DNA of 64,000 nucleotides from Dictyostelium discoideum (GCA_000004695.1 CM000154.2:3232001-3296000); one strand, 5' to 3'; shown: positions 2,217 through 51,949, numbered from the stretch's first letter. Made by a program: numbers and translations. The notes: generated by a model from the letters alone, not told the origin.

Positions 2217-4515
<2,299 letters not shown>

Positions 4516-8700: not shown

Positions 8701-9478
8701 CATTGATTCCACTAAAAATGTAAATCTAAAACGTTCCTTACGAACTTGTTTAAAGTGTGTCATTGCCTCTAGAATCAATTGATAACCTTTCTCTGAGATC
8801 ATACATATCGCTGTCAATATTTCAAATACACTCGATCTTGTATCCGCTTTTGGTGTATCCATTGATGTGATTAACCTAATCATTGAATTGGGTGTTGCTA
8901 TCGCTTTCTCTATACCATACTTTGAGTTTAACAATGATAATAAACATGTTACCGCTAACGATTGTAATATAACATCACTATCCTTTTGACCATTCCTTTC
9001 AATGAATGCTAATACATTCAATAATGCCTCTATACCATTACAATCTATCAATGACTTTGACCATGCTGATGGTTTACTCTGTAATGATGAACATAATTGT
9101 GCCAAAATTTCAATATTTGGTAATAAATTAATTGTATTTACAAAAAATTCTGGTGTATCAACTGCTTTACCTTTCTAAAAAAAAAAAAATAAAAAAAAAT
9201 AAAAAAAAATAAAAAAATAAAAATTTTATATTAATAAAATAATAATATTAGTAATTATAAAATAAAAAAAAAAAAAAAAAAAAACATACATCATCAAATT
9301 TATCAGCTGATTTTGAATTTGTTGAATTATTTCCATCTGGTTGAAGACTTGAATATGCCATAGAATAACGTTTATTTGCTTTGGCTGGTAATGAAGATAA
9401 AAAATCATTCTCTGACTCTGTTGATCCTTTTTCGTCTGAATCTTTATCTTTTTTCTTTCTACCAAAAATTCTATTCAT
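5701..9478 (-). CDS. Diaphanous-related formin (GBD/FH3 - FH1 polyproline - FH2 - DAD). Two exons: 9290-9478 and 5701-9174. A 115-nt GTATGT..TTTTAG intron separates them. The product is about 1220 aa.
   Basis: Exon 1 reads MNRIFGRKKKDK...SADKFDD and ends at a GTATGT donor. Exon 2 begins KGKAVDTPEFFVNTINLLPNIEILAQLCSS. The track's 1134-aa ORF starts at an internal TTG. The FH1 region is PPPAPPAPPPPPMMGGGPPPPPPPPMMGGGGPPPPPPPP. FH2 covers the region after FH1 (ANAPKFTVSKPTTKVKQFQW...). The C-terminal DAD-like segment is GGMVEDIMQSVRDGDAFKQRRRLKG. Confidence 0.8.
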
Positions 9479-27572: not shown

Positions 27573-27686
27573 TTTGAAATAACGCGGTTTACAACATTTA
27601 CAAAATCATTCTTAAAAAAAAAGTTGGATAACGCAATTAATTTTTTTAAAACTAATAGTGAAAATTTTTTTTTAAATCATCAACAT

Positions 27687-27759
27687 GTCAGGTTGGCTCA
27701 GTTGGTAGAGCGTAGGTCTCATAATCCTAAGGTCCAGAGTTCGATCCTCTGACTTGACA
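27687..27759 (+). tRNA. Elongator tRNA-Met (anticodon CAT).
   Basis: GTCAGGTTGGCTCAGTTGGTAGAGCGTAGGTCTCATAATCCTAAGGTCCAGAGTTCGATCCTCTGACTTGACA. The acceptor stem GTCAGGT/ACTTGAC contains one G-T pair. The D-arm is GCTCAGTTGGTAGAGC. The anticodon loop is CTCATAA. The T-arm is CAGAGTTCGATCCTCTG. A T-run follows. Confidence 0.8.
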
Positions 27760-27790
27760 TTCATTTTTTGTGAAGAAGTCCCTAAAATCA

Positions 27791-27965: not shown

Positions 27966-29174
27966 ATGGCTGATGATCACTCAACTGAATTACAGTTAAA
28001 TCATACAGATAACAACACAACCAATACAAATAACACCTCCACAACCTCAACAACAAAAAACAAAAGTGCAAAAATCGACACACCTAAAAAACAAACCCCA
28101 ACAAACCAACTCTCACTAAACAAAGGACTTGATAATCAATTAGATATCATTGCACCTCCATCAATCACAAGACCACTCTCTTTCTTAGAAAAAAACAATA
28201 ACACCATCAACATTAAGTGTTACTTTAATCAACCACACATCCGTGAAGAATTAACCTCAAAAGATGACACAAGAATTCAACAAATTCACAAAAACATTCA
28301 CAAACTCTTCGAAGTTATACTGTCGCCATCAGCATTCAAAATAATTGGTGCAACTGCCTTCGTAAATTGCAACGTTGATAAATTAACTTCAATAATCAAC
28401 CTTCAAAACCAACTTGCACTAAATATCGACAAACTCAACTATAGATTCGATATATCATCAAATGATTATGCAATCATTAAAACATTCATTAAAACGTACT
28501 CACCCAAACATGCAAACGATGCAATTACAAACAACCTCACTAAATTCACCAGTTGTACATCAATTGAATCATTTACTGTCACATACTCATATGCTGTTGC
28601 GTTTAAAAGCTACATTATAACATACCATCTAATTGATCACACACACAACATTGTTGATCAAAAGATCGAACAACCATCTGGTATCACAAGATATATCAAA
28701 GCTGCAACACGTAGTGTCACTAAACACAAAATTCAACATGCAAAAAATGCAGATATGGCAACAACTATAAAAAATGCTATCACAAACCCAAACATGAACA
28801 AAAACAATCAACCACCAAAAAACAACATTAACACCCCACCAATCAACGAAATTGCAAATTCCAATCGCAATAAAAACTCACTTCAAAATAGTGGTTCAAA
28901 AGCTATACTAAATGAATCACTTGATATTAACAATCAATCCCAAAACAATAATGAAATTTCACACAAAAGTGATTCTTCAAATAATAATAACGGGAAAAAC
29001 TCATTATCAATGAGCAATCCAACCGATCCAACAATTGTACCACAAAAACCTCTACAATCTCAACCAAACAAACCAAGTGCACCAACTCCAAATCCAATAA
29101 ATACAAGAAGAAGCAGCAATGCCCTGACTACACAACCAGTCAATACTGGTGCTGCCAAACCTAGTAAGGTATGA
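27966..29174 (+). CDS. TRE3-like ORF1 (402 aa), with a Thr/Asn/Pro-rich and basic C-terminus.
   Basis: It starts at an ATG and is immediately followed by ORF2. The stop of ORF1 overlaps the ORF2 start (ATGA). Confidence 0.7.
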   Translation: MADDHSTELQLNHTDNNTTNTNNTSTTSTTKNKSAKIDTPKKQTPTNQLSLNKGLDNQLDIIAPPSITRPLSFLEKNNNTINIKCYFNQPHIREELTSKDDTRIQQIHKNIHKLFEVILSPSAFKIIGATAFVNCNVDKLTSIINLQNQLALNIDKLNYRFDISSNDYAIIKTFIKTYSPKHANDAITNNLTKFTSCTSIESFTVTYSYAVAFKSYIITYHLIDHTHNIVDQKIEQPSGITRYIKAATRSVTKHKIQHAKNADMATTIKNAITNPNMNKNNQPPKNNINTPPINEIANSNRNKNSLQNSGSKAILNESLDINNQSQNNNEISHKSDSSNNNNGKNSLSMSNPTDPTIVPQKPLQSQPNKPSAPTPNPINTRRSSNALTTQPVNTGAAKPSKV

Positions 29175-32100
29175 GCTCAAAAATCAACTTTATAACATGG
29201 AATTGTAGAGGATTCACTGAAAACGCAAACAATCAACACAATTCCTACCAAAAAGCTGTTGACACACTACAACTACTTATATCAAAACTTCCACCTCGTC
29301 CAACAATCTCAATACTCACTGAACTCAATTCATCACCATTACAACTTAAACATGATTTTCCCGATCACATCATCTCTGTCACCAAAAGAGGAAATGGTGT
29401 AATAATCATTAACCATAACCCAAACACACTCAAACTCAAACACATATCAACAATTGATGGTAGAGCTATTTTAGCAGACGTTATATTTCCAAATCAATTA
29501 CCAATTGGTATTCTTGGAATTTACGCACCAGCATCAAATAATACCATCAAAAAGAATTCATATGCAACTTCACTACAAACACTTCTCCACAACCACTCAA
29601 CAAACCCAATACCAAACCAATCCCAACATGTATCTATTATCGCAGGAGATTTCAACTGTATCCACAACGACAATTCACTATTAGATGATATTATCCAATC
29701 CTACACATACCAACACCATCTAATTGATCAAGGTGAATTTAAAAACACTCCAACTCATACACATGGTAACAGATTAGATAGAATATATACCCAATACAAT
29801 AGAATAGACCCTGAAAATATATATACACAAGTCCACCAAATTCCATCTTCATTATCAGATCATAATCCAATATCAACAACAATTTCTTCACCTTTTCAAA
29901 TAAATAAACATAAGAAAAGATGGATATTATCACCTGGTACTGCAAATGACCATGAAGCAATCAATATTATCAATCATTTAATAACTAATCACAATAACAC
30001 ATCAATCAATCAATTTACAAACTGGTCAAAAGTAAAATCAAAAATTATTAAAACTCTAAAAAACTATCAATATAACAAAGACAAACAAACTCAACGTGCA
30101 AAACAAATACTATTAGAAAAAGCAGGAAAATTCAAACATCTTGAAGAACAATGCATCGCTGAATACAATATTATATGTAACAAAAACAAATTACATCAAA
30201 ACCACACAAACATATTAAAAAAACATATAAATGGAGAAATACCTAGCAAGTATCTATCAGCAATACTAAACAAAAGATCAAAAGATGCAAAAATTGAATC
30301 AATCCAATATGGCAACATCATTACATCCGACCCCGACCAAATTGAAAATGCGTTTGTTGAATTCTACACAAATCTATATAGCTTACAAATATGTTGTCCA
30401 ATTACTCACCAGCTCATGCTAAACACATGGCCCATCATAAAAAATGAATATTGGAATGGTTTAGACTCACCATTTATACAAGATGAAGTTGAAGCTGCAA
30501 TTAAAACCTGTAACCCCAACAAATCACCCGGTCCAGATGGCGTTACAAATGCATTCTACATTAATCATTTAAACCAAGTTAAACCAATTCTCACTACATT
30601 ATTCAACGATATACTAGAAAATCCTCACCACATCACAACAGAATTCACCGAAGGTCTTATACACACAATTTACAAGAAAGGCAACCCCTTACTCATATCA
30701 AATCGTCGTCCCATTACACTTCTTAACACTGATTACAAGATCCTCTCAAAAGTAATCAATGCACGTCTTCTGAGAATACTTCCTTTCATCATCAACAACA
30801 ACCAAACTGGTTTCGTACCCCACAGATTCATCATAGACAACATCATCAACATCAATGAATTAATAAACTACCTCAAATCTAAAAACCTCCCTGGTATCAT
30901 CACACTATTTGACTTCTTTAAAGCATTTGATTCTATCTCTCACGATAGCATTAAAAGAACATTAATTCATATTGGAATACCAATAAAATTAATAAATTTA
31001 ATCCACAAGCTATTATCTGACTCACAAGCAAAAATTTCAATTAATGGTAAAACGACCAGAAAATTCGATATTAAAAGAGGTGTAAAACAAGGTGACCCAA
31101 TCTCAGCCACTTTATTTGTAATTGTAATTGAAATATTAGCAAGAACAATAAATGCAGACAATTCAATAATTGGATTACCAATTTCACCCAATCCACAAAT
31201 TAAAATCAAATTTACCCAATTTGCAGACGACTCTACAACATACAACATCAACTACGAACAACAACAACAATCAATAATCAAACATTTCGATAATTTCTGC
31301 GCTTCAACATCATCATCTTTAAATTTTGACAAAAGTGCAATTATAGAAATCAACCCCCACAAAATCACTGATAAACACTTAATAAACAACATTCCACAAT
31401 CAAAAAGAATTCCAATAACCAAAAAAGATCAATCAGAAAGAGTTCTTGACTATTTCTTTAATCATAATGGTTTACATAGGAAATTACCAGAAACAATGAA
31501 AACACTGATTAAATCATTAGTGCTATGGAAAACTATTGGTACAACATTAAAAACAAAAACAACCATCATAAACACCTACTCACTATCACCAATAACATAT
31601 TTATCATACCTTGAAGAATTTACAAAAGATGAAGAAATTCAAATTAATAAATTAATCTCATGGTTTATGAATTCTCCCGCAAATTCTGAATCACCAACTC
31701 TCAATACCAATTCCATTGAAAACAACACATCAACCATCCATTCACGTGCAAAAATACCTTTGATGTGTTATGATAGATCATTAAAACCATTAAAAGAAGG
31801 TGGTTGGGGTATGTGGAATATACAATTACGACAAGTTGCTCAAAAGATTTGGATATACAACAGATTTTTACAAATGCATAAATCTGCAAACAATTCAATA
31901 TACATGATAAGTTGGATGGATCAAATCATCAACAAATCAATCTCTTCTCCATACCTTATAAAAATAAAAAAAGAATGGGAAAACTATGCAACTCAAATTG
32001 GACATCTAAAAGATAAAGTTCAAATCCTACAACCAATATTAACAAAAAACCAACCCTCTCAAACATTAAACACAAATAATATTTCACTACCACCAACACT

Positions 32101-33001
32101 CAAAGAAATCTACTCGACAATACTAAACAATCACCAATGCAAATCAAAAGACTATATTGGCAAGAAATATTCAGATCTACTTCTTACTCCGCACCAACAA
32201 TCAATACAATTATTATGGAAATACACATACGACCAACTTTTTGTCAAAATTCAAAAATTAAAAGATCCAAAAGGCCGTGATACAATGCAAAGATTCCATG
32301 CTAGATGTCTTCCGATTAATCATCTACACAACAAAGTTTGCCCCATTTGCAACAATGAAATGAATAATGATCCCTATGGTCATTTGTTTTTCAATTGTCA
32401 GCACACAATCAACTCCATTAACCACGACAAATTAAAATATTTTATATATAAAAATTGCAATGGAAACAAAAACTGGTCACTAACAAAAAACCAAACAACA
32501 AAATTATACACACTCATCTATAAACCACAAACAAACAACAAAGCATTTAAACCAGATCCAACTATCAATATTAATTTTCATTTTGCAGAAAACGCACAAT
32601 ATAAAAAATACAGGTTCAACTGGAATTATATAAACACAAATCTTGATCTAGTCAGAACACATGCATATTGGAACATAATCTCATTAGTTATTCACCAAAT
32701 ATGGATATGGTTATGCAAATCATTATTTGACATCAATATAACTCAATCAATTGATAATTGGAACAACCAAATAAACAACACAACACTAGATTATGATATA
32801 TTAAAATCAAAATGGCACAAGCTAATAAGATTGGAATATTCAAGAACTTTATCAAACTTTAACCAATACTCAATTAAAAACAACCTCACAAAAACTCAAA
32901 AAGAAACCCAATGGTCTGAAACCATCAAAAAATTTAAAAAAGAATGGAGCATAAACACAAATGAACCAATTCCAACAATTACACCACCAATTAATTATTA
33001 A
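29171..33001 (+). CDS. TRE3-like ORF2 (1276 aa): APE-type endonuclease, reverse transcriptase and a C-terminal Cys/His motif.
   Basis: The N-terminus reads ITWNCRGF...SDHNPIS, the EEP endonuclease. The RT block is ...PGPDGV...FADDSTTY (FADD equals the YxDD box). The Cys/His motif is CPICNNEMNNDPYGHLFFNCQH. Confidence 0.85.
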   Translation: MSSKINFITWNCRGFTENANNQHNSYQKAVDTLQLLISKLPPRPTISILTELNSSPLQLKHDFPDHIISVTKRGNGVIIINHNPNTLKLKHISTIDGRAILADVIFPNQLPIGILGIYAPASNNTIKKNSYATSLQTLLHNHSTNPIPNQSQHVSIIAGDFNCIHNDNSLLDDIIQSYTYQHHLIDQGEFKNTPTHTHGNRLDRIYTQYNRIDPENIYTQVHQIPSSLSDHNPISTTISSPFQINKHKKRWILSPGTANDHEAINIINHLITNHNNTSINQFTNWSKVKSKIIKTLKNYQYNKDKQTQRAKQILLEKAGKFKHLEEQCIAEYNIICNKNKLHQNHTNILKKHINGEIPSKYLSAILNKRSKDAKIESIQYGNIITSDPDQIENAFVEFYTNLYSLQICCPITHQLMLNTWPIIKNEYWNGLDSPFIQDEVEAAIKTCNPNKSPGPDGVTNAFYINHLNQVKPILTTLFNDILENPHHITTEFTEGLIHTIYKKGNPLLISNRRPITLLNTDYKILSKVINARLLRILPFIINNNQTGFVPHRFIIDNIININELINYLKSKNLPGIITLFDFFKAFDSISHDSIKRTLIHIGIPIKLINLIHKLLSDSQAKISINGKTTRKFDIKRGVKQGDPISATLFVIVIEILARTINADNSIIGLPISPNPQIKIKFTQFADDSTTYNINYEQQQQSIIKHFDNFCASTSSSLNFDKSAIIEINPHKITDKHLINNIPQSKRIPITKKDQSERVLDYFFNHNGLHRKLPETMKTLIKSLVLWKTIGTTLKTKTTIINTYSLSPITYLSYLEEFTKDEEIQINKLISWFMNSPANSESPTLNTNSIENNTSTIHSRAKIPLMCYDRSLKPLKEGGWGMWNIQLRQVAQKIWIYNRFLQMHKSANNSIYMISWMDQIINKSISSPYLIKIKKEWENYATQIGHLKDKVQILQPILTKNQPSQTLNTNNISLPPTLKEIYSTILNNHQCKSKDYIGKKYSDLLLTPHQQSIQLLWKYTYDQLFVKIQKLKDPKGRDTMQRFHARCLPINHLHNKVCPICNNEMNNDPYGHLFFNCQHTINSINHDKLKYFIYKNCNGNKNWSLTKNQTTKLYTLIYKPQTNNKAFKPDPTININFHFAENAQYKKYRFNWNYINTNLDLVRTHAYWNIISLVIHQIWIWLCKSLFDINITQSIDNWNNQINNTTLDYDILKSKWHKLIRLEYSRTLSNFNQYSIKNNLTKTQKETQWSETIKKFKKEWSINTNEPIPTITPPINY

Positions 33002-38256: not shown

Positions 38257-41200
38257 TTAACCAAATTTTGGGAAATAATTCATTATTGTTTTCCAGTAAC
38301 TTTCTGGATGGGTTGAACAATGATTTTGATAAAAATGTATAAATAGTGTTCTAATTTGAGTAAGTCTTTGTTTTCTTCTTTCTTCAATCTCTTTGAAACT
38401 TAATGATTGACTATGATGACTATGTTGTTCATTTATATTTGATGTTGATTTTGATTTTTCATTATTATTATTATTTTGATTTTGATTTTGATTTTGATTT
38501 TGATTTTGATTTTGATTTTGATTTTGACCAACTTTATTAAGATTATTAATTTGATTTACTTTATTATTTGGTTGATTTTTGGTATTAATTTGATTTTTTA
38601 AAGTATCAAAATATTTATTTTCAAAAGAGAAAGCATTATCCCAACTTTGAGCTAAGCAATCACTATCATTATCTTCATCATCTGAAACCAATTTATGAGA
38701 TTTATCCTCTTCAGTCTCTTCACTTTGTTCACTACCAGTGAAACTACTAGATGGATGATAATTCTTTGGAGTTGAACCACCACCACTATTCAATGAACCA
38801 ATAATTCTTTTTTCAGTGAATGAACCCATCAATTGCCAACTACCACCAATTTCTGGTTCAACTTGAATATCATCATCTGATCCTCTTCTTCTCTTTGGTC
38901 CATTTGGTACATCCATTGGTATACTCGTACCTGAAGTTGCTGGTGATGTATGTAATTGGTGATGACCATGATGACCATGATGTCCATGATGTGATTGTTT
39001 AATCATAATAGATGATGATCCAAAACTACCAGCTATATTATTATTACTATTCATTGGTGAGTGAGAAATTGGTGTTGGCGGAGCTGATGTATTATTATTA
39101 TTGGTACTATTATTGGTACTATTATTGTTAGTGTTATTATTATTATTAAAATTATTATTATTATTATTATTACCAACTTTATTCATACCAATAAATAATT
39201 TTGGAGAATTATTTTGAGGAGTTACTGGTGCAGATTGAGAAATATCAATACCTTTTGTATTCCAACTACTTGGTGAAGAGTTTTTGTGTCCACCAATATT
39301 ACTATTATTATTACTATTTGATTTGTTTGATTTGTTTATATTTTTTACATTATTATTATTATTATTATTATTGTCTACAATATTTTTTCTATCTACATAA
39401 TTATTTACAATCTCTAATGGTTGTTGAGAATTTGAATTTTTACGATTACCAGTTGGAGTATTACCTTTATTATTTACAGATTGTTGTGATTGTGCTTGTT
39501 GTAACTGTTGTTTTAGTAATCCCATACCACTATTATTTGTAGTTTGTTGTTTTTCTTGTTGTTTATCTTGTTGTTTATCTTGTTGTTGTTGTTGATTTAA
39601 TTTATTAAAAGTATGAATTGAAAAATCCATTGAAGAGATGAAATCCAAGAAATAAAAACAGAAATAAAATATATCTTCACCTTTACCAGCTCTATCACAA
39701 AGTTGATGAGAGAATAAGAACCAATCGTAGGCAACCGTTAAAAAGAGCATTTCCCAATCCTTTAAAGATTGATGAACCTCACCATCAGCCCAAAGACTGA
39801 TTCTAAGTAATGAAATAAACAATGGTGTTCTATCCCATCCAGATATACAATGAACTAATAAACCAGATGGGTTATTATCATCAGATACATATTTTAATAA
39901 TAACTTGAAATAATTTTGTGTTAAATTTACTATTAAAAAGAGAAAAAAAAAAAAAAAAAATAATAGTTAATATATATCTATTTTTTTTTTATTTTTTTAT
40001 TTTTTAATATTAATATACTTACTTAAATCCCAAGTTTTATAAGATTCCCATGGTATCATTGGTAATTGATGATCTGGATGTAAATTTAATTCTGCTGGAT
40101 CTTCAATACCATCCCAAGAATAAAATAAATCTTTTCCACAATGTTGATTTCTATTAAAATCTGCAAAAAATTCTACACCAGGATAAGGAGTAGAAGAAAT
40201 TACAAAATCTTGATATCTTCGATGCATATCAACTTTTTCTGATGAACAAACAAAGAAACCAAACCTTTTTTTTTTTTTTTTAAAAAAATAAAAAATAAAA
40301 ATAAAGGTTAATGAAATTTGTTTTTATTATAATTATTATTATTATTTATTACTTACTTTTTCTTTTTATTTTCAACCATTAAATCACAAATGTATCTAAT
40401 ATTTAAATGTTTAATAACTAGAATATCATTATTTCTAAGATGTTCCATATCTAATTGTTGTTGTGCCTGTTGTTGTCGTATTTGAGTTGACTGTTGTTGT
40501 GCTTGTTGTTGATCATGTTGGCCTTCAACATGTGAATCATGATGTTGATAATGTTGATTAATAACTGAAGAAGTCATTGTACTATCATTTTTATTTAATC
40601 TATCAATATCAATTGAATCTTCAATCATACTATTAGTAATTGGATTATTTTGATTATTATTATTATTATTATTTTGATTATTATTATTATTATTAATTTG
40701 ATTATTATTATTATTTTGATTATTATTATTATTTTGATTATTATTATTATTACTAAACATTATAGATTGTGATAAAGAAGAAGTTGTTGGAGATGGAACA
40801 GAAGAAAATTGTTTTTTCATTGAATTAACACCAGATTGAAACATATATTCAATCTTTTGAGAGAGTGTTGAGGATCTACAAAGATTTTTATGATGATAAA
40901 ATATAACTGGAAATGGGAATCTTGTTCTTACACGTGCAAATCTAGATTGATCCAATAATTTTTCTAAATTACGAGAGAGTTCTGGATGAACGTGTTTATT
41001 CTTTTCTTTACATACTTTACATCCTGTCTCTAACTCGTGTTCAATAAAAATTAAATCTGGTGGGTATGTTGCGCATAATTCACCTTCTTTATTATTGATT
41101 AATGATATTTTATAATCTTTTTCAAATAATGTATTTACAATTTCTTGATATTTAAATAATTCCTTGTTTTTTTGTTTTGTTGTTGTTTTGTTTTAAATTA

Positions 41201-41762
41201 ATTAAATAATAAAAAAAAAAAAAAATTATTTAATATTAATATATATAATTATATAATATTAATAATAATTATTTTAAACTTACTTCATCTCTTTTACCAG
41301 GGAATGGTTGTTTATATCTTCTAAAATGAGCAAACATTTCGGCTAATTCAGATGCCAATGAATCACCACATGCAAGCGAGGGGTTAACTTCAAAAGAGTT
41401 CATTGTATTGGCATCGTTTGTCGTATTATCACCATTTGACGATATATCTTCAGAGACAACTATAGATGGTTCATCATCGTCATTGCTATTGATTGTGTTA
41501 TTATTATAGGAAACGAATTCTCTCTACTTATATTGCAAGTATTATTATTACTACTGCTGTCACTATTATTATTATTGTTTTTATTATTATTATTATTATT
41601 GTTATTATTATTATTATTACTGCTGCTGTTACTACTACTACCACTACTATCGTTTTCGACAGATTTTTTAGGGGATTGTGAACAAGGTGTATTTGAAGGC
41701 TTTATTGAAGAAATTAATTGTTCTGTTGTTGAGGATGGTGGTGTGCTAGAGGTAATTACCAT
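38257..41762 (-). CDS. Myotubularin-family phosphoinositide phosphatase (MTMR14/Jumpy-like, no GRAM domain evident). Four exons: 41285-41762, 40358-41162, 40024-40264, 38257-39929. The exon-1 copy contiguous here carries a frameshifting deletion.
   Basis: The catalytic P-loop is LVHCISGWDRTPLFISL (CX5R; compare myotubularin VHCSDGWDRT). The upstream motifs are GELCATYPPDLIFI and FPVIFYHHKN (compare ELCDTYP and IPAVIYRH). The N-terminal exon is S/N-rich. All intron donors are GTAAGT. The long Q/N-rich C-terminal exon ends at 38257. Confidence 0.65.
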
Positions 41763-41849
41763 TTTAATGGATTTGTTTTTTTAATGAGGTGAAAGTAATT
41801 GAGCGTATTCCTAGTGTGTGTCTTTTTTTTTTTTTTTTTTTTTTTTTTT

Positions 41850-41949
41850 NNNNNNNNNNNNNNNNNNNNNNNNNNNNNNNNNNNNNNNNNNNNNNNNNNN
41901 NNNNNNNNNNNNNNNNNNNNNNNNNNNNNNNNNNNNNNNNNNNNNNNNN
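41850..41949. other. Assembly gap (100 N).
   Basis: A literal run of 100 N. The sequence on either side (41130-41849 and 41950-43020) forms near-identical tandem copies. Confidence 0.95.
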
Positions 41950-42463
41950 TTCAAATAATGTATTTACAATTTCTTGATATTTAAATAATTCCTTGTTTTT
42001 TTGTTTTGTTGTTGTTTTGTTTTAAATTAATTAAATAATAAAAAAAAAAAAAAATTATTTAATATTAATATATATAATTATATAATATTAATAATAATTA
42101 TTTTAAACTTACTTCATCTCTTTTACCAGGGAATGGTTGTTTATATCTTCTAAAATGAGCAAACATTTCGGCTAATTCAGATGCCAATGAATCACCACAT
42201 GCAAGCGAGGGGTTAACTTCAAAAGAGTTCATTGTATTGGCATCGTTTGTCGTATTATCACCATTTGACGATATATCTTCAGAGACAACTATAGATGGTT
42301 CATCATCGTCATTGCTATTGATTGTGTTATTATTATTATTTGGTATTATTGGTGATATTGGACTTGGAATATCTTCATTGTTATTACTATTATTATTATT
42401 ATTATTATTTACATTTGGTTCATATGATACTTTTTTAAATTGCTTTGGTATATATGTATTTTC

Positions 42464-42505
<42 letters not shown>

Positions 42506-43020
42506 GTTATTGTTATTAGTACAATTATAGCTTTCATTTATTAAAATTTCGGATTTAGAATTTAATATCTCTTCATTTCTGCTGTTGTTATTATTATTGT
42601 CACAACTATTATTATTATTACTATTATTATAGGTTTCATTATTCTCTTCTACAGCAACTGCTTCTTCTAATGTTAAATCCATCATGAAAGGAAACGAATT
42701 CTCTCTACTTATATTGCAAGTATTATTATTACTACTGCTGTCACTATTATTATTATTATTATTGTTTTTATTATTATTATTATTATTATTATTGTTATTA
42801 TTATTATTATTATTATTACTGCTGTTACTACTACTACCACTACTATCGTTTTCGACAGATTTTTTAGGGGATTGTGAACAAGGTGTATTTGAAGGCTTTA
42901 TTGAAGAAATTAATTGTTCTGTTGTTGAGGATGGTGGTGTGCTAGAGGTAATTACCATTTTAATGGATTTGTTTTTTAATGAGGTGAAAGTAATTGAGCG
43001 TATTCCTAGTGTGTGTCTTT
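41950..43020. repeat. Segmental duplicate of the phosphatase exon 1, the first intron, and about 100 bp of the 3' end of the 805-bp second coding exon. The paralogous copies are 41130-41849 and 46880-47950.
   Basis: The three stretches are near-identical by direct comparison of long stretches. Each is followed by similar AT-rich spacer and then by a B-box/FNIP gene. Confidence 0.7.
42098..42958 (-). CDS. Intact copy of the first coding exon of the myotubularin-like gene (286 codons, MVITSSTPPSS...FPGKRDE, followed by a GTAAGT donor). It is separated from the catalytic exons by the gap.
   Basis: It is identical to 41460-41762, except that it retains about 352 bp (the FMMDLTLEEAVAVEENNETYNN...DDDEP stretch) that the 41.3-41.8 kb copy has lost. 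An identical intact copy exists at 47027-47887. Confidence 0.5.
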
Positions 43021-43553
43021 TTTTTTTTTTTTTTTTTTTTTTGGTTTTTTTTTTTTTTTAATTTATTTATTATTTTTTTTTTTTATTTTTTCTATTTTTT
43101 TTTATATTTTTTATTTTATTTTTTTTTTTTTTTATTTTGGTTTTTTTGAGTTTAACTTAATAAAAAAAAAAATAAAAAAAAATAAAAAAAAATAAAAAAT
43201 AAAAATTAAAAAAAAAAAAAAAAAAAAAAAAATAAAATAAAATAAAATAAAAAAAAAAATAAAGATAAACCTGAAAAAGAGAAATGATTATTTAAATATA
43301 CCTCTTTTTTTTTTAAGATTTAATTTTATATGTATTCAATATTTTTTATTTTAAAATTTAAATATCCATTTACAAACCAATTTTCAAAATTATTATTCAA
43401 GTTATCCAATAAAAATAGGCAATTTTCAATGACTAAAAAGGAAATACCATAAAGTTAAGATAGAATTAAATACATAATTAAGGAATTGATTTTTTTATTT
43501 TTTTTTTTTTTATTGGAATTGTTTAATTTAACCTAATGTTATTTTTCTGAATT

Positions 43554-45147
43554 CTATTTAATTATTTTTACATTTTTTGAAACATAAGGTTCAATTTGAT
43601 GTTTAAAACTTGTGAAAACTTTTACTTCCTTTACAGTATTAGGAATTGAACCAATTATTAATTCTTGTTTAATATCGCCTAAACGCAACGATTCAACACC
43701 ATCTGGTAATATACCTGGTGTTAATTTTTGATTGAATCCATCTTTTAAAGTAACACGAGTTACAGTATTAGGAATTGAACCAATTATTAATTCTTGTTTA
43801 ATATCGCCTAAATACAAGGATTTAACACCATCTGGTAATATACCTGGTGTTAATTTTTGATTGAATCCATCTTTTAAAGAGACAAGAGTTACAGTATTAG
43901 GAATTGAACCAATCATTAATTCTTGTTTAATATCGCCTAAATACAACAATTTAATACTATCTGGTAATATACCTGGTGTTAATTTTTGATTGAATCCATC
44001 CAATAAAGAGACATGAGTTACAGTATTAGGAATTGAACCAATCATTAATTCTTGTTTAATATCACCTAAATACAAGGATTTAACGCCATCTGGTAATATA
44101 CCAGGTGTTAATTTTTGATTGAATCTATCCAAGAGCATTACAGTAGATGGTAATTGATTTTTTAATTTTGATAAAATATTACAATTGTCTTTGAATGCTA
44201 TACCTTCATTCTCCTTAAATTTAAATGAATCATCCTCTATATAAACATAAAACTTTGAACTATCCCCTATATTTGGTAATTAGAATGATGTAAACATAAT
44301 TTATAAAAAAAACTGTATAAAGCTTACATTTAAAAAATTTATTTTTATTTTCATCGATTTCAATTATAAATCTACAATTATCTAAGGTATAAATTGATTT
44401 TAAATTATTTTTAATATCATCAATTATTTGATTATGGAAATGAATGATTTGATTATCGTATTCATTTAATTTATTTGAATTATTGATATTATTATTATTA
44501 TTTAATACTATTAATGATTGTTGATATTGTTTAATAATTTTAATTGTATCTCTATCAATAATAAAATCTTCTCCATTATCATAAATTTGTTGATCATTAA
44601 ATTTTATAATTTCATTTAATTTTTCAATAGTTGTAGTTCTATCATTTTCATTTTCATTATTATTATTAATTATAGTTGAAAGTATTTGATTATCATTATT
44701 GATTGAAGAAGTTATAATTGTATTTATTAATGTATTATTTTCAAAGGTTGTTTCTAATTGTTTTTTAATATCTAATTCTATGATTGAAATGATATCATGA
44801 ATTTTTTTAATTTCTTTTTTTAATGAATTATTATTAATATCAAATTGTGATTGAATTTCATTGTATTTATCATTTGATTCTTGTAATATTGTTTCATTGA
44901 TTTCTATTCTTTCAATTACTTTTTGGTATATATCATTTTTAAAATTATTCATTAATGAAAGAATATTTGAAGTTGATTCTAATGGATCAGTTTTATGACC
45001 ATGATGTTCACCTTTACTTGATGTACATTGAATACAACATGGTATTAATTTACAATCTAAACAAAAGAATACTATATCTTTATTTGGGTGAAGTGTACAC
45101 TTTTTATTATTATCAATATTATTTATTTTATTATGATTTGAAATCAT
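43554..45147 (-). CDS. B-box zinc finger / coiled-coil / FNIP-repeat protein, copy F2 (about 509 aa). Exons are 44328-45147 and 43554-44266. The intron is 61 nt (GTAAGC..ATAG), phase 1.
   Basis: The B-box reads [51 protein letters not shown]. The coiled-coil is [55 protein letters not shown]. The FNIP exon has 4.5 double repeats and ends KEVKVFTSFKHQIEPYVSKNVKIIK. The track start at 45222 (MVSHIKISGSKFFFFFF) is upstream poly-A read-through. The true ATG is at about 45147. Confidence 0.7.
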
Positions 45148-45906
45148 TGTGTTTGGGATTGGTGTGGATGTAAAAAAAAAAAAAAAAAATTTGGAACCAG
45201 AAATTTTTATATGAGACACCAAAAATAAAAAAAAATAAAAAAAATAAAAATAAAATCGCTTAAAAAATTAAGAAAAACAAAATCTTTTTTTTTTTTTTTT
45301 TTTAAAAAATAAATAAATAATTAAATATTTATATTGTTATTGATAAAAATTTAAAAAAAGGAAAAATATTTTGAATTCAATCGTTAATCATTTTTTTTTT
45401 ATAAAAAAAAAAGATATAATTTAATTATATATACAATGTTTTTTAAATCTCTATTTTTGGAACATTTTAATAGTAAATTAAATTTAAATATGTTTGCTGA
45501 CATTAATATGGCTGCTGAAATTAATATGCATGTAAATTAATATGGATGCTAAAATTAATATGGGACACACTATTGGCAATTTTAAATCACTAAAAAATAT
45601 CATCATGGTACAGCGGATCAATTAAATGGATTTTGTAATTTGAGGGTAAAAACAAATTTACTCAAACCTGGAATTAAATATACCTAAACCCATTCAAATG
45701 TTACCATTTGACGCCATATGGTAGTAAACTACTATTAATCATATTGATTATTTTATTTAAATTTTCAATTAAAACATTACAATGAGCAGTTTTGCGATGA
45801 TTTGCTTTTTTAAAACTCTGTTGGAAAATTATTAATATTTATTATATTTGATGTTATTTCTTCATTTTATCTTGTTTTGTCATGATTAGTAGGTTGGCTG
45901 TACCTG

Positions 45907-46441
45907 TTAACAGTAGTTTCTTACACTCTTTACAGTATTAGGAATTGAACCAATCATTAATTCTTGTTTAATATCACCTAAATACAACCATTCAACACTA
46001 TCTGGTAATATACCTGGTGTTATTTTTTGATTGAATTCATTCAATAAAGAGACACTCGTTACAATATTAGGGATTGATCCAATCTCCAATTCTTGTTTAA
46101 TATCGCCTAAACTCAACCATTTAACACCAACTGGTAAAATGCCTGGTTTTAATCTTTGATTGAATCCATCCAATAAAGAGACATGAGCTACAGTATTAGG
46201 AATTGAGCCAATTATTAATTCTTGTTTAATATCACCTAAATACAAGGATTTAACACCAACTGGTAAAATGCCTGGTGTTAATTTTTGATTGAATCCATCC
46301 AATAGCATTACATTTGATGGTAATTGATTTTTTAATTTTGATGATGAAATATTACAATTGTCTTTGAATGCTATACCTTCATTCTCCTTAATTTTAAATG
46401 AATTACCCTCTATATAAATATAAAACTTTAAATTATCCCCT
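45907..46441 (-). pseudogene. 3' fragment of a B-box/FNIP paralog: three FNIP double repeats plus the intron and exon-1 tail. It fuses at about 46441 to a myotubularin-gene fragment.
   Basis: ORF 45907-46308 reads LLDGFNQKLTPGILP... and ends SVRNYC (the type-II tail, as in F0). Upstream sequence matches the paralog intron, ...ctatataaatataaaactttaaattatcccct. It then switches abruptly to aatgttgattaataactgaagaagtcattg, which is the same as 40547-40580. Confidence 0.5.
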
Positions 46442-46446
46442 AATGT

Positions 46447-46543
46447 TGATTAATAACTGAAGAAGTCATTGTACTATCATTTTTATTTAATCTATCAATA
46501 TCAATTGAATCTTCAATCATACTATTAGTATTGGATTATTTTG

Positions 46544-46594
<51 letters not shown>

Positions 46595-47392
46595 TTGATT
46601 ATTATTATTATTTTGATTATTATTATTATTATTACTAAACATTATAGATTGTGATAAAATATAACTGGAAATGGGAATCTTGTTCTTACACGTGCAAATC
46701 TAGATTGATCCAATAATTTTTCTAAATTACGAGAGAGTTCTGGATGAACGTGTTTATTCTTTTCTTTACATACTTTACATCCTGTCTCTAACTCGTGTTC
46801 AATAAAAATTAAATCTGGTGGGTATGTTGCGCATAATTCACCTTCTTTATTATTGATTAATGATATTTTATAATCTTTTTCAAATAATGTATTTACAATT
46901 TCTTGATATTTAAATAATTCCTTGTTTTTTTGTTTTGTTGTTGTTTTGTTTTAAATTAATTAAATAATAAAAAAAAAAAAAAATTATTTAATATTAATAT
47001 ATATAATTATATAATATTAATAATAATTATTTTAAACTTACTTCATCTCTTTTACCAGGGAATGGTTGTTTATATCTTCTAAAATGAGCAAACATTTCGG
47101 CTAATTCAGATGCCAATGAATCACCACATGCAAGCGAGGGGTTAACTTCAAAAGAGTTCATTGTATTGGCATCGTTTGTCGTATTATCACCATTTGACGA
47201 TATATCTTCAGAGACAACTATAGATGGTTCATCATCGTCATTGCTATTGATTGTGTTATTATTATTATTTGGTATTATTGGTGATATTGGACTTGGAATA
47301 TCTTCATTGTTATTACTATTATTATTATTATTATTATTTACATTTGGTTCATATGATACTTTTTTAAATTGCTTTGGTATATATGTATTTTC

Positions 47393-47434
<42 letters not shown>

Positions 47435-47887
47435 GTTATTGTTATTAGTACAATTATAGCTTTCATTTATTAAAATTTCGGATTTAGAATTTAATATCTC
47501 TTCATTTCTGCTGTTGTTATTATTATTGTCACAACTATTATTATTATTACTATTATTATAGGTTTCATTATTCTCTTCTACAGCAACTGCTTCTTCTAAT
47601 GTTAAATCCATCATGAAAGGAAACGAATTCTCTCTACTTATATTGCAAGTATTATTATTACTACTGCTGTCACTATTATTATTATTATTATTGTTTTTAT
47701 TATTATTATTATTATTATTATTGTTATTATTATTATTATTATTATTACTGCTGTTACTACTACTACCACTACTATCGTTTTCGACAGATTTTTTAGGGGA
47801 TTGTGAACAAGGTGTATTTGAAGGCTTTATTGAAGAAATTAATTGTTCTGTTGTTGAGGATGGTGGTGTGCTAGAGGTAATTACCAT
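46447..47887 (-). pseudogene. Partial duplicate (5' fragment) of the myotubularin-like gene. It holds exon 1 intact, intron 1, and a rearranged piece of exon 2, with internal deletions.
   Basis: 47027-47887 equals 42098-42958, an identical 286-codon exon. 46660-46960 equals 40905-41170. 46447-46660 equals 40547-40765 with the (AAT)n altered. About 135 bp between two gataaa repeats is missing. The copy lacks the catalytic exons. Confidence 0.5.
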
Positions 47888-48630
47888 TTTAATGGATTTG
47901 TTTTTTAATGAGGTGAAAGTAATTGAGCGTATTCCTAGTGTGTGTCTTTTTTTTTTTTTTTTTTTTTTTTTTGGTTTTTTTTTTTTTTTAATTTATTTAT
48001 TATTTTTTTATTTTATTTTTTCTATTTTTTTTTTATATTTTTTATTTAAATTTTTTTTTTTTTTTTTTTTTTTTATTTTGGTTTTTTTTGAGTTAAACTT
48101 AATAAAAAAAAAAAAAATAAAAAAAAAATAAAAAATAAAAATTAAAAAAAAAAAAAAAAAAAAAATAAAATAAAATAAAAAAAAAATAAAGATTAACCTA
48201 AAAAAAGAAATGATTATTTAAATATCCCTCTTTTTTTTTTTAAGATTTAATTTTATATGTATTCAATATTTTTTATTTTAAAATTTAAATATGTTAAAAC
48301 ACTCTTTTTTTTTTTTTTTTTTTTTTTTTTTCAAGATTCAATTAAACACTGCCCTCTAAAGGAATAAAAGTAACAGTAATGTAAGTATTAAAAAAATTTT
48401 CAATATTATGCAAATTTCCATTATACTATCCTGATTTTTTTGAAATTTCAAAAAAAAAAAATATCTTTTTACAAATTATTATTCAAGTTATCTAATAAAA
48501 ATAGGCAATTTTCAATGACTAAAAAGGAAATACCATAAAGTTAAGATAGAATTTCCCAATTAAATACATAATTAAGGAATTGATTTTTTTTTTTTTTTTT
48601 TTTATTGGAATTGTTTAATTTAACCTAATG

Positions 48631-50518
48631 TTATTTTTCTGAATTCTTTTTAATTATTTTTACATTTTTTGAAACATAAGGTTCAATTTGATGTTTAAAA
48701 CTTGTGGAAACATTTACTTCCTTTACAGTATTAGGAATTGAACCAATTATTAATTCTTGTTTAATATCGCCTAAATTCAACGATTCAAAACCATCTGGTA
48801 ATATACCTGGTGTTAATTTTTGATTGAATCCATCTTCTAAAGTGACACGAGTTACAGTATTAGGAATTGAACCAATTATTAATTCTTGTTTAATATCACC
48901 TAAATCCAACGATTCAACACTATCTGGTAGAATACCTGGTGTTAATTTTTGATTGAATCCATCTTCTAAAGAGACATTCTTTACAGTATTAGGAATTGAA
49001 CCAATCATTAATTCTTGTTTAATATCACCTAAATCCAACGATTCAACACCTTCTGGTAGAATATCTGGTGTTAATATTTGATTGAATCCATCTTCTAAAG
49101 AGACAAGAGTTACAGTATTAGGAATTGAACCAATCATTAATTCTTGTTTAATATCACCTAAATACAACCATTTAACACTATCTGGTAATATACCTGGTGT
49201 TAATTTTTGATTGAATCCATCTTTTAAAGAGACAAGAGTTACAGTATTAGGAATTGATCCAATAATTAATTCTTGTTTAATATCACCAAAAAACAACCAT
49301 TCTACGCCATTTGGTAAAATACCTGGTGTCAATTTTTGATTGAATCCATCCAATAAAGAGACACGAGTTACAGTATTAGGAATTGAACCAATTATTAATT
49401 CTTGTTTAATATCACCTAAATACAAGGATTTAACGCCATCTGGTAATATACCAGGTGTTAATTTTTGATTGAATCCATCCAATAGCATTACATTTGATGG
49501 TAATTGATTTTTTAATTTTGATAAAATATTACAATTGTTTTTGAATGCTGTACCTTCATTCTCCTTAAATTTAAATGAATCACCCTCTATATAAACATAA
49601 AACTTTAAATTATCCCCTATATTTGGTTATTAGAATGATGTAAACATAATTTATAAAAAAAACTGTATAAAGCTTACATTCAAAAAATTCATTATTATTT
49701 TCATCGATTTCAATTTTAAATCTACAATTATCTAAGGTATAAATTGATTTTAAATTATTTTTAATATCATCAATTATTTGATTATGGAAATGAATGATTT
49801 GATTATCATATTCATTTAATTTATTTGAATTATCGATATTATTATTATTATTTAATACTATTAATGATTGTTGATATTGTTTAATAATTTTAATTGTATC
49901 TCTATCAATAATAAAATCTTCTCCATTATCATAAATTTGTTGATCATTAAATTTTATAATTTCATTTAATTTTTCAATGGTTGTAATTCTATCATTTTCA
50001 TTTTCATTTTCATTTTCATTTTTATTATTTTTATTATTAATTATAGTTGAAAGTATTTGATTATCATTATTGATTGAAGAAGTTATAATTGTATTTATTA
50101 ATGTATTATTTTCAAAGGTTTTTTCTAATTGTCTTTTAATATCTAATTCTATGATTGAAATGATGTCATGAATTTTTTTAATTTCTTTTCTTAATGAATT
50201 ATTATTATTATCAAATTGTGATTGAATTTCATTGTATTTATCATTTGATTCTTGTAATATTGTTTCATTGATTTCTATTCTTTCAATTACTTTTTGATAT
50301 ATATCATTTTTAAAATTATTCATAAATGAAAGAATATTTGAAGTTGATTCTAATGGATCAGTTTTATGACCATGATGTTCACCTTTACTTGATGTACATT
50401 GAATACAACATGGTATTAATTTACAATCTAAACAAAAGAATACTATATCTTTATTTGGGTGAAGTGTACATTTTATATTATTATCAATATTATTTATTGT
50501 ATTATGATTTGATACCAT
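48631..50518 (-). CDS. B-box / coiled-coil / FNIP-repeat protein, copy F3. Exons are 49678-50518 and 48631-49616. It has about 6.5 FNIP double repeats.
   Basis: [24 protein letters not shown]...B-box...coiled-coil. The intron is GTAAGC..ATAG. The FNIP exon (285 codons in the track) ends ...KEVNVSTSFKHQIEPYVSKNVKIIKKNSEK. Confidence 0.7.
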
Positions 50519-51154
50519 TGTGTTTGGGATTGGTGTGGATGTATTGAGAACCGGTTCTCAATCAATCGCACAACCTATTTATCAAACTAATCAAGGTATA
50601 AAAATGCAACTATAAATGTTACTATGTAAATACAACCATTCAACACTATCTGGTAATATATGTGGTGTTAGTTTTTGATTGAATCCATTTTTTAAATAGA
50701 CATGTGTCCCATGCCAAAATAAAACGAAACTTCATCTGTTAGTAACAAAAGAGTAAGCAGAAGAGTCAATAATTAAAATAAAAAATATTATTTTAATTTT
50801 TTTTTTTTTTTTTTTTTTTTATTTTTTTTTATTTTTTTTTATTTTTAATTTTTTATTTATAATTTTTTTTTTTTGTGAGCCGGCTAGACATAAATGAATA
50901 ATAAAAAAATATATACCAACTAAAAAAAAAAGAAATGAAAATAAATTATAAAATTAATAATAAAAATAAAAAGATAAAAATAAATAAAAGATATAAATAA
51001 AATAATATGAAAATTTTTTTTTTTTTTTTTATATTATTATAATTATTTTTTTTTAGTTGATATATATTTTTTTAATAATAATTTTAGTGCTAAAATTTTG
51101 TTTATATTTGAGATGATTATTAATTAAATGACTTTGACTTTTTTTTTTTTTCTA

Positions 51155-51321
51155 TGCCAAAATTACCATATTAATTTCAGCAGCCATATTAATTTCGGCA
51201 GCTATGTACATGCTGAAATTAATATGGCTGCTGAAATTAATACGGTAATTTTGGCAGACGTAAGTCCCATGCCAAAATTAATATGGCTGCTGAAATTAAT
51301 ATGGTAATTTTGGCATGGGAC
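51155..51321. repeat. Nested inverted-repeat (hairpin or MITE-like) structure built from ATTAATATGGCTGCTGAAATTAATA units.
   Basis: A 48-nt arm TGCCAAAATTACCATATTAATTTCAGCAGCCATATTAATTTCGGCAGC, then a TATGTACAT centre, then its reverse complement. A second palindrome follows: GTCCCATGCCAAAATTA...TAATTTTGGCATGGGAC. Related motif copies sit at 45495-45575. GTCCCATGCCAAAAT recurs at 50705. Confidence 0.6.
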
Positions 51322-51949
51322 AAATAAATAAGGAATAAATTATTTAAAAAAAATAAAAATTCTTATATTTTAATATTTTTTATTTAAATATTTATTGTAC
51401 ACCCATTATTTTTTATCATTTTATTATAGTTTTTAATAATATACAATATCATATATTAAACTATAATTTAATGTTTTAAAAAATGAGAAATTACAATAGT
51501 ATTATTTCCTATTAATTGTTGTATATTATTAAATTATAGTTTTATGTTTTAAAAAATGAGAAATTACAATAGTATATTGTGGTAAATCAATAAATTTTTT
51601 ATAATTTAATGACAAATTAATATTCAATTTTAATTAAATAATTTTAGATTTTATCAATTTTTAATTTATTAAAATATATTTTTATTATGGCCAGATTCTT
51701 TTTTATTATTTTATGATAATGTGTGATTAATTATTAATTAGAAATTGATATTAGTTTGTTAAAAATTTTATTACATTATAATATCGTTTCTTAAAATATG
51801 AGTTTTTGCGGTAGTTTAATTTCTCACAAAATAGTAAAATTTCTTAGGTTTTTTTTCTCTGGTGAATACATAATTAAGGAATTGATTTTTTTTTTTTTTT
51901 TTTTTTTATTGGAATTGTTTAATTTAACCTAATGTTATTTTTCTGAATT

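Follow-up and report, generated by a model that had tools for sequence, protein, structure and literature searches.

Short repeats in two spacers of an FNIP gene array in Dictyostelium discoideum are very probably remnants of thug-S, a family of DNA transposons

The gene array and its repeat-bearing spacers

Here, we describe a family of short repeats in two spacers of a gene array in Dictyostelium discoideum, and their probable relationship to the DNA transposon thug-S. The repeats are located in a stretch of 64,000 nucleotides (nt) from the assembly GCA_000004695.1 (CM000154.2:3232001-3296000), hereafter called the window, from the first letter of which all positions are counted. The window is AT-rich, with a base composition of about 22% G+C, and contains a minus-strand array of B-box/FNIP-repeat genes, in which arrays of the 129-bp repeat are found at approximately 43.5, 45.8, 48.6 and 51.9-55 kb. 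DDB_G0289849 of D. discoideum AX4 is the best protein match for a gene in the window and is encoded exactly, which places the window on chromosome 5; DDB_G0289777 is encoded as well. The repeats reside in the spacers at 45173-45800 and 50544-51864 and, judging from their sequence, we consider it very likely that they are short, non-coding and degenerate remnants of the thug-S family. In form, these remnants resemble a miniature inverted-repeat transposable element (MITE), and one of them possibly represents a diverged microRNA hairpin.

A comparison of the two spacers revealed nothing in common except for the repeat units, and the explanation that the spacers are paralogues of one ancestral spacer was rejected on these grounds. 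The longest open reading frames (ORFs) in the spacers encode 59 and 45 amino acids and a protein search with their translations retrieved no homologues, in agreement with an earlier reading of the sequence alone (the sequence-only reading), which had described the repeats as non-coding. A homologue search with a chimera of the hairpin ORFs, aimed at translated thug-S hairpins elsewhere, likewise gave no match at E <= 10.

Structure of the repeats

The repeats are built from an 18-nt unit, GCTGCTGAAATTAATATG, which has eight matches in the window at no more than three mismatches (0.08 expected), all confined to 45493-45562 and 51167-51303. Alignment showed that the units are combined into a module of approximately 55 bp, in which two forward 18-bp units are joined by a truncated inverted one and which ends with ...GGCATGGGAC, also given as ...GTAATTTTGGCATGGGAC in the alignment. 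The inverted end, CATGCCAAAATTAATATG, is itself a variant of the 18-bp unit. The segment 51150-51321 contains three aligned copies of the module, of which the first faces left and the other two face right.

Copies one and two lie head-to-head and form a near-perfect palindrome at 51155-51256 (X1), with arms at 51155-51200 and 51211-51256 that are 96% complementary over 46 nt and surround a centre of 10 nt. The sequence-only reading had placed an arm, a centre and a reverse-complement arm within 51155-51321; the hairpin was recovered, with arms of 46 rather than 48 nt. RNA folding, which had been proposed as a check, strongly supported the structure, with z-scores of about -15 on both strands of X1: the fold has an energy of -68.5 kcal/mol on the plus strand and -69.4 kcal/mol on the minus strand (z = -15.3 and -15.9), and none of 200 shuffled sequences folded as well. 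The right end of X1 has a 3-bp deletion, located between GGCA and GAC. A custom scan for complex hairpins, with arms of at least 20 nt and at least 5 G/C, identified no other in the 64 kb.

The third module copy is a mini-element of 58 bp on the plus strand at 51264-51321 (X2), which corresponds to the second palindrome that had been reported to follow directly after the first. It is bounded by perfect 17-nt inverted ends, GTCCCATGCCAAAATTA at 51264-51280 and TAATTTTGGCATGGGAC at 51305-51321, and its fold signal is weaker, with z of about -6 (z = -6.0 and -6.4). Within X2, residues 51268-51315 directly repeat the right half of X1 (51209-51256) with 94% identity, at a spacing of 59 bp.

Two further pieces of the family were identified outside this cluster. 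The first is a half-element on the plus strand at 45493-45569, in which four direct units of 16-18 bp, TTTGCTGACATTAATATG, GCTGCTGAAATTAATATG, CATGTAAATTAATATG and GATGCTAAAATTAATATG, are followed by a terminal GGGAC (nhmmer E = 1e-8 and 2e-5). The copy lacks 14 bp between two ATG repeats, so that ATATG is directly followed by GGAC. Related units had been noted at 45495-45575 as part of a palindromic family, and the relationship was confirmed, whereas the palindromic character was not: the units are direct tandem units, and neither a hairpin nor a fold signal was found for 45493-45569 (z = 0.35 and -0.01). The second piece is a lone left end, GTCCCATGCCAAAAT, an exact 15-mer on the plus strand at 50706-50720 after which no sequence of the family follows; exact copies of this 15-mer occur three times in the whole window.

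The lone end abuts, at 50706, a stranded fragment of a single FNIP repeat on the minus strand (50624-50704, 81 bp, 82-93% identical to intact repeats), with a possible 2-nt overlap (GT). This is the arrangement described in the sequence-only reading, where a solitary terminus had been placed at 50705 beside such a fragment. We searched for similarity to FNIP repeats beyond X2 and found none, since 185 of 300 shuffled sequences scored equally well; the fragment is therefore the trace of a breakpoint with one side only, rather than of a target that was interrupted. Together, the lone end and the fragment mark a rearrangement breakpoint, the sole mark of this kind among the repeats, and the fragment itself stands outside the family.

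Four junctions with unrelated flanks, at 45569, 50706, 51264 and 51321, all end at the same nucleotide of GTCCC/GGGAC, which argues for the end of a discrete element and not for random breakage of palindromes.

Match to the thug-S microRNA

The microRNA miRNA_can_D3 lies within the DNA transposon thug-S of D. discoideum, in the thug-S intron, and its mature sequences, as given in Table 2 of the study, are the 23-mer UAUGGCUGCUGAAAUUAAUGUGG for miRNA_can_D3-5p and the 21-mer AUUAAUUUCGGCAGCCAUAUU for miRNA_can_D3-3p (Meier et al. 2016, PMC4894637). At the published loci, the 21-mer is located upstream of the 23-mer with starts 63 nt apart, and the first 19 nt of the duplex are complementary except for one G·U pair (PMC4894637). 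Six genomic positions on chromosomes 2, 3 and 5 are listed in S4 Table, two of which are mirror images in the chromosome 2 duplication, and the probe DM227, used in Northern blots for miRNA_can_D3, is given as CCACATTAATTTCAGCAGCCATA in the supplementary oligonucleotide table (PMC4894637). The thug-S hairpin is processed to RNAs of 21-23 nt, the read counts of which fall in rbdB- cells (PMC4894637). The transposon was described by Glöckner et al. 2001 (as cited in PMC5633606 and PMC4894637), Avesson et al. 2012 were the first to report microRNAs derived from it (PMC4894637), and 0.1% of the genome consists of thug elements according to the literature.

The 21-mer and the 23-mer each have four sites in the window at no more than two mismatches, where 0.00 are expected. 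The homologue of miRNA_can_D3-3p is located on the plus strand at 51170-51190 in the 5' arm of X1, with one mismatch to AUUAAUUUCGGCAGCCAUAUU, and the homologue of miRNA_can_D3-5p on the plus strand at 51223-51245 in the 3' arm, with two mismatches to UAUGGCUGCUGAAAUUAAUGUGG. A second homologue of miRNA_can_D3-5p is found within X2 (51282-51304, plus strand, one mismatch) and a third on the minus strand at 51166-51188, again with one mismatch, at the same site as the match to DM227, which also has one mismatch. In the minimum-energy fold of X1, the homologue of the 21-mer pairs with 51241-51221, and the pairing of 51170-51188 with 51241-51223 is perfect and in the register of the published duplex. 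The homologue of the 21-mer is also located upstream of that of the 23-mer, which is the order found at the published loci. The comparison with thug that had been proposed thus showed that both strands of the microRNA duplex are present in near-exact form. Small RNAs from this copy, if produced, would end in the locus-specific variants ...AAUUAAUAUGG and ...AAUUAAUACGG.

Six positions, on chromosomes 2, 3 and 5, are reported for the same small-RNA sequences (PMC4894637), and the motif therefore occurs beyond this locus; its uniqueness here, with a lack of target-site duplications or of defined termini in other copies, had been named as what would refute the candidate element. This also bears on the explanation that the repeats are a purely local minisatellite with a palindrome, generated by replication slippage and inverted duplication with no transposon involved. 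The copies in the window are indeed all located within 6 kb, and the left, right, right arrangement can come from local duplication. However, the same sequences of 21-23 nt are reported within thug-S on three chromosomes, the literature thus already places the unit array elsewhere in the genome, and the two clusters lie in spacers that have no other sequence in common. We regard this explanation as very unlikely.

We also considered the possibility that X1 is a host microRNA gene, that is, a functional and expressed paralogue of the thug-S precursors that is kept for regulation. The hairpin is very stable and holds both duplex strands in register, and a run of 13 T residues is located directly upstream (51139-51151); start sites of primary microRNA transcripts in D. 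discoideum are, according to the literature, a G preceded by T-rich sequence. Against this, T runs are ubiquitous in this genome and the locus lies outside the six reported positions. The best hit in Rfam was mir-5727, at 33.9 bits compared to a gathering threshold of 100, and only generic hairpin matches below the threshold were obtained. Furthermore, the sibling species described below has no such hairpin at its syntenic locus, and there is no sign of conservation. A host microRNA gene is therefore, in our judgement, an unlikely explanation, and we favor a degenerate thug-S remnant.

Transposon features and mobility

Several observations weigh against an origin from thug-S. No target-site duplication is visible at any of the ends: duplications of 2-8 bp beyond those expected by chance from A/T were found neither around X2, which is flanked by CGTAA and AAATA, nor around a possible composite of 616 bp at 50706-51321, which is flanked by CATGT and AAATA. 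A full thug-S element with its gene model is missing: there is no ORF of more than 59 amino acids in either spacer, and flanking exons were not found, although the placement of the hairpin in an intron implies them. The arm starts in X1 are 53 nt apart compared to 63 nt at the published loci, and 51155-51256 is not among the six microRNA positions listed. Finally, the assignment is drawn from the published small-RNA sequences of 21-23 nt and their hairpin context and not from a full alignment.

Given the difference in spacing, the hairpin in X1 is a shortened variant of the published one. The copies in the window are fragments or non-autonomous derivatives rather than full elements, and there is no evidence of present mobility of these copies. 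X2 nevertheless has the form of a MITE, with terminal inverted repeats, a length of 58 bp and no ORF. Of the suggestion that the repeats are a candidate MITE or foldback element, the MITE-like shape was thus retained and given a probable family by the small-RNA match to thug-S, whereas the target-site duplications that such an element should leave are absent.

In an alternative explanation, the repeats are an independent and possibly still active MITE or foldback family, with X2 as the mobile unit and only a short motif in common with thug-S. In its favor are the perfect 17-bp inverted ends of the short, non-coding X2, the recurrence of the same end at several junctions, and the lack of the motif in the syntenic array of the sibling species. 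On the other hand, neither X2 nor the composite has target-site duplications, and the near-identity of X2 to the adjoining half of X1 looks like the result of a local tandem duplication and not of an insertion. Neither the remainder of the window nor 181 kb of Dictyostelium DNA from elsewhere yielded further copies, and the identity to the thug-S small RNAs, over 21-23 nt and on both strands, is too long for a shared short motif. We therefore consider an independent family to be distinctly improbable.

Other assemblies and species

The set of contigs for comparison consisted of a second assembly of the same locus, one syntenic locus from a sibling species and seven unrelated FNIP loci. The second assembly, GCA_054883475.1 (CM142511.1, 3.35-3.37 Mb; L002), is a chromosome-level assembly of another isolate or laboratory line of D. 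discoideum and is 99.6-99.9% identical to the window over the region. Palindromes are often artefacts of assembly or cloning, and a gap of 100 N with probably mis-joined duplicates is located approximately 9 kb away from the repeats. However, both spacers (45173-45800 and 50544-51864), with every repeat, match this independent assembly exactly, which refutes an artefact of assembly, an explanation to which we give practically no credence.

Other Dictyostelium DNA, 181 kb in all (L003-L011), contained no copy of the motif by a pattern search or an nhmmer profile, as would be the case for an element that is rare and dispersed and not for an AT-rich motif of common occurrence. In D. cf. discoideum (L004), the syntenic array consists of an MTMR14-like 5' exon followed by FNIP genes, an O-methyltransferase gene and BLTP1. 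It contains no copy of the 18-bp unit or of the end, and no precise empty site is visible, since its spacers cannot be aligned to those of the window. An exact-pattern scan with TATGGCTGCTGAAATTAATRYGG of metagenome, prokaryote-genome and viral collections retrieved no Dictyostelium copy and a single match, in L001 (Ga0326513_10007278). This exact match of 23 nt to the unit, at 3283-3305, was rejected as a chance match: the contig is eukaryotic, AT-rich and unrelated, and the match is a single copy that lies within an ORF (…CMAAEINMDKKE…) and has no hairpin.

In another locus of D. cf. discoideum (L007), two B-box/FNIP gene models, P0011 and P0014, have an identical C-terminal stretch of approximately 150 amino acids that is transposon-like (…PDIVVFDYVAKLIRVIDVCVPYD…). 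The shared C-terminus suggests transposon insertions into FNIP genes of the sibling species.

Duplications in the array and the palindrome at 50544

A block of approximately 4.6 kb has recently been duplicated in the array, from 40549-45172 to 46441-50543, with 91-100% identity between the copies. The block includes a B-box/FNIP gene as well as the 5' part of a gene of the MTMR14-like type, and two truncated copies have resulted from its duplication, one of an FNIP gene (45801-46452) and one MTMR14-like (46640-47887). The sequence-only reading had suggested that the hairpins could be driving such local duplications. However, the junctions of the duplication, at 46441-46452 and 50543, do not coincide with the hairpins, which are located approximately 600 bp from the junction at 50543, within unique spacer. 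A role for the hairpins as drivers of the FNIP gene duplications therefore has no support, and for the study of the array this negative result, hairpins off the duplication boundaries, is the useful one.

The junction at 50543 is marked by another structure, a perfect 18-bp palindrome, TTGAGAACCGGTTCTCAA, at 50544-50561. It had been listed together with the repeats, and while its perfection was confirmed, its position was off by one base and it has no sequence in common with the repeat family, to which it is unrelated. The window contains 15 perfect palindromes of 18 bp, of which this is the only one with G+C, and Markov simulations predict 0.01 such palindromes with at least 8 G/C per window. 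The palindrome sits exactly at the 50543 breakpoint, where the upstream homology of gene C with paralogues A and D ends, and may represent a scar from snap-back or foldback repair at a rearrangement breakpoint. The left half of TTGAGAACCGGTTCTCAA resembles TTTGGAACC in the upstream region of paralogue A.

The 100-N assembly gap mentioned above is located at 41850-41949. In its surroundings, two pairs of segments show 100% identity, namely 40894-41507 with 46652-47265 and 41121-41507 with 41950-42336. In L002, a long-read assembly, 41507 is directly followed by the block at 41950, and the segment corresponding to 47266-47617 of the window is lacking. The reference has probably been mis-assembled around a recent segmental duplication near 41850-41949.

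Other features of the window

The spacer that contains the hairpins also contains a direct repeat at 51451-51506 and 51523-51578, with 91% identity and a spacing of 72 bp, which is unrelated to the thug units. Farther away, a retrotransposon of the type without long terminal repeats (non-LTR) is located on the plus strand at 27966-33001, with an ORF1 of 402 amino acids and an ORF2 of 1276 amino acids that contains endonuclease and reverse transcriptase domains. It begins approximately 200 bp downstream of a tRNA-Met gene (27686-27760), a position that is typical of TRE3-type elements. The program ARAGORN also called a tRNA-Ser(gga) at 7486-7563, within the ORF of a formin (5701-9105; FH2/FH3/GBD domains), and this call is probably a false positive.

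Look-ups of ten ORFs or spliced products from the window in protein collections gave no exact matches. A homologue search with the C-terminus of the MTMR14-like protein, aimed at orthologous loci in other strains, retrieved no Dictyostelium protein and was swamped by low-complexity words.

Discussion

The repeat family is already known and not new, the thug-S transposon having been described in 2001 and its microRNA hairpin in 2012, and our findings have little significance beyond annotation. In thug-S proper, the equivalent hairpin is transcribed and cut by the Dicer-like DrnB/RbdB machinery into a microRNA duplex of 21 and 23 nt. X1 retains both strands of this duplex in register and would, if transcribed, be a substrate for the same machinery. 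At the level of the DNA, the triplication of the module and the deletions of 3 bp and 14 bp may represent changes by slippage or template switching at hairpin-forming repeats.

A bolder proposal, which we put forward as possible and rather doubtful, is that X1 represents a seventh, diverged and unlisted member of the thug-S microRNAs. Its RNAs would carry AAUAUGG or AAUACGG near the 3' end of the 23-mer, compared to AAUGUGG in the published sequence. The precursor would have been created by head-to-head doubling of an X2-like module (55-58 bp, with 18-bp units) into a Dicer substrate with a stem of 46 bp, and a thug transposase, as yet unclassified, would recognize the shared GTCCC/GGGAC(A) ends together with the 18-bp units in subterminal position.

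The results may be of modest use in two respects. Firstly, the hairpin has been resolved into a module of approximately 55 bp with defined ends, which could help to define the ends and the binding repeats of thug. Secondly, the copy is tagged by its mismatches, and its expression could be readable from existing small-RNA libraries, which would tell whether degenerate copies that lie outside full elements still feed the DrnB/RbdB pathway.

Comparison with known systems

The repeats were compared to four known systems. The ends show some similarity to those of the Ginger2/Tdd group, in that TGTCCC...GGGACA, and thus TGT...ACA, is present at three of the four junctions, and the dictyBase gene model DDB_G0270824 has homology with tdd-4 as well as with thugS. 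However, Tdd-4 and Tdd-5 create target-site duplications of 5 bp, none of which was found here, and the inverted repeats of Tdd are 260-297 bp long. Ends of this type require TGTNR, whereas the sequence here is TGTCC, with C instead of a purine at the fifth base and only at the three junctions, and together with the lack of a 5-bp duplication this led us to reject the Ginger2/Tdd type.

In the foldback (FB) elements of Drosophila, the arms extend over hundreds of base pairs to kilobases and contain many subrepeats. The repeats in the window are similar to these in having inverted arms of short tandem subrepeats and a palindrome that is prone to rearrangement, but the arms are 46 bp long and contain two to three 18-bp units each.

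MicroRNA hairpins derived from MITEs are known from other organisms, such as human mir-548 from Made1 and several plant microRNAs. As in these, we find a short non-coding element with inverted ends that fold into a Dicer substrate. In contrast to these, no target-site duplication is seen here, and the long hairpin is composed of two head-to-head modules and not of the two ends of one element. Avesson and colleagues reportedly proposed in 2012 that the thug-S repeats are sources of newly evolved microRNAs.

The comparison with thug-S itself also reveals differences, in that the arm starts are 53 nt apart here and 63 nt apart there, and in that flanking exons and an ORF are lacking here whereas thug-S has gene models, such as DDB_G0271154_TE. 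The similarities are both strands of the 21/23-nt duplex with one to two mismatches, the hairpin context, the order of the arms, the register and the host species, in a family that the literature describes as multicopy and dispersed.

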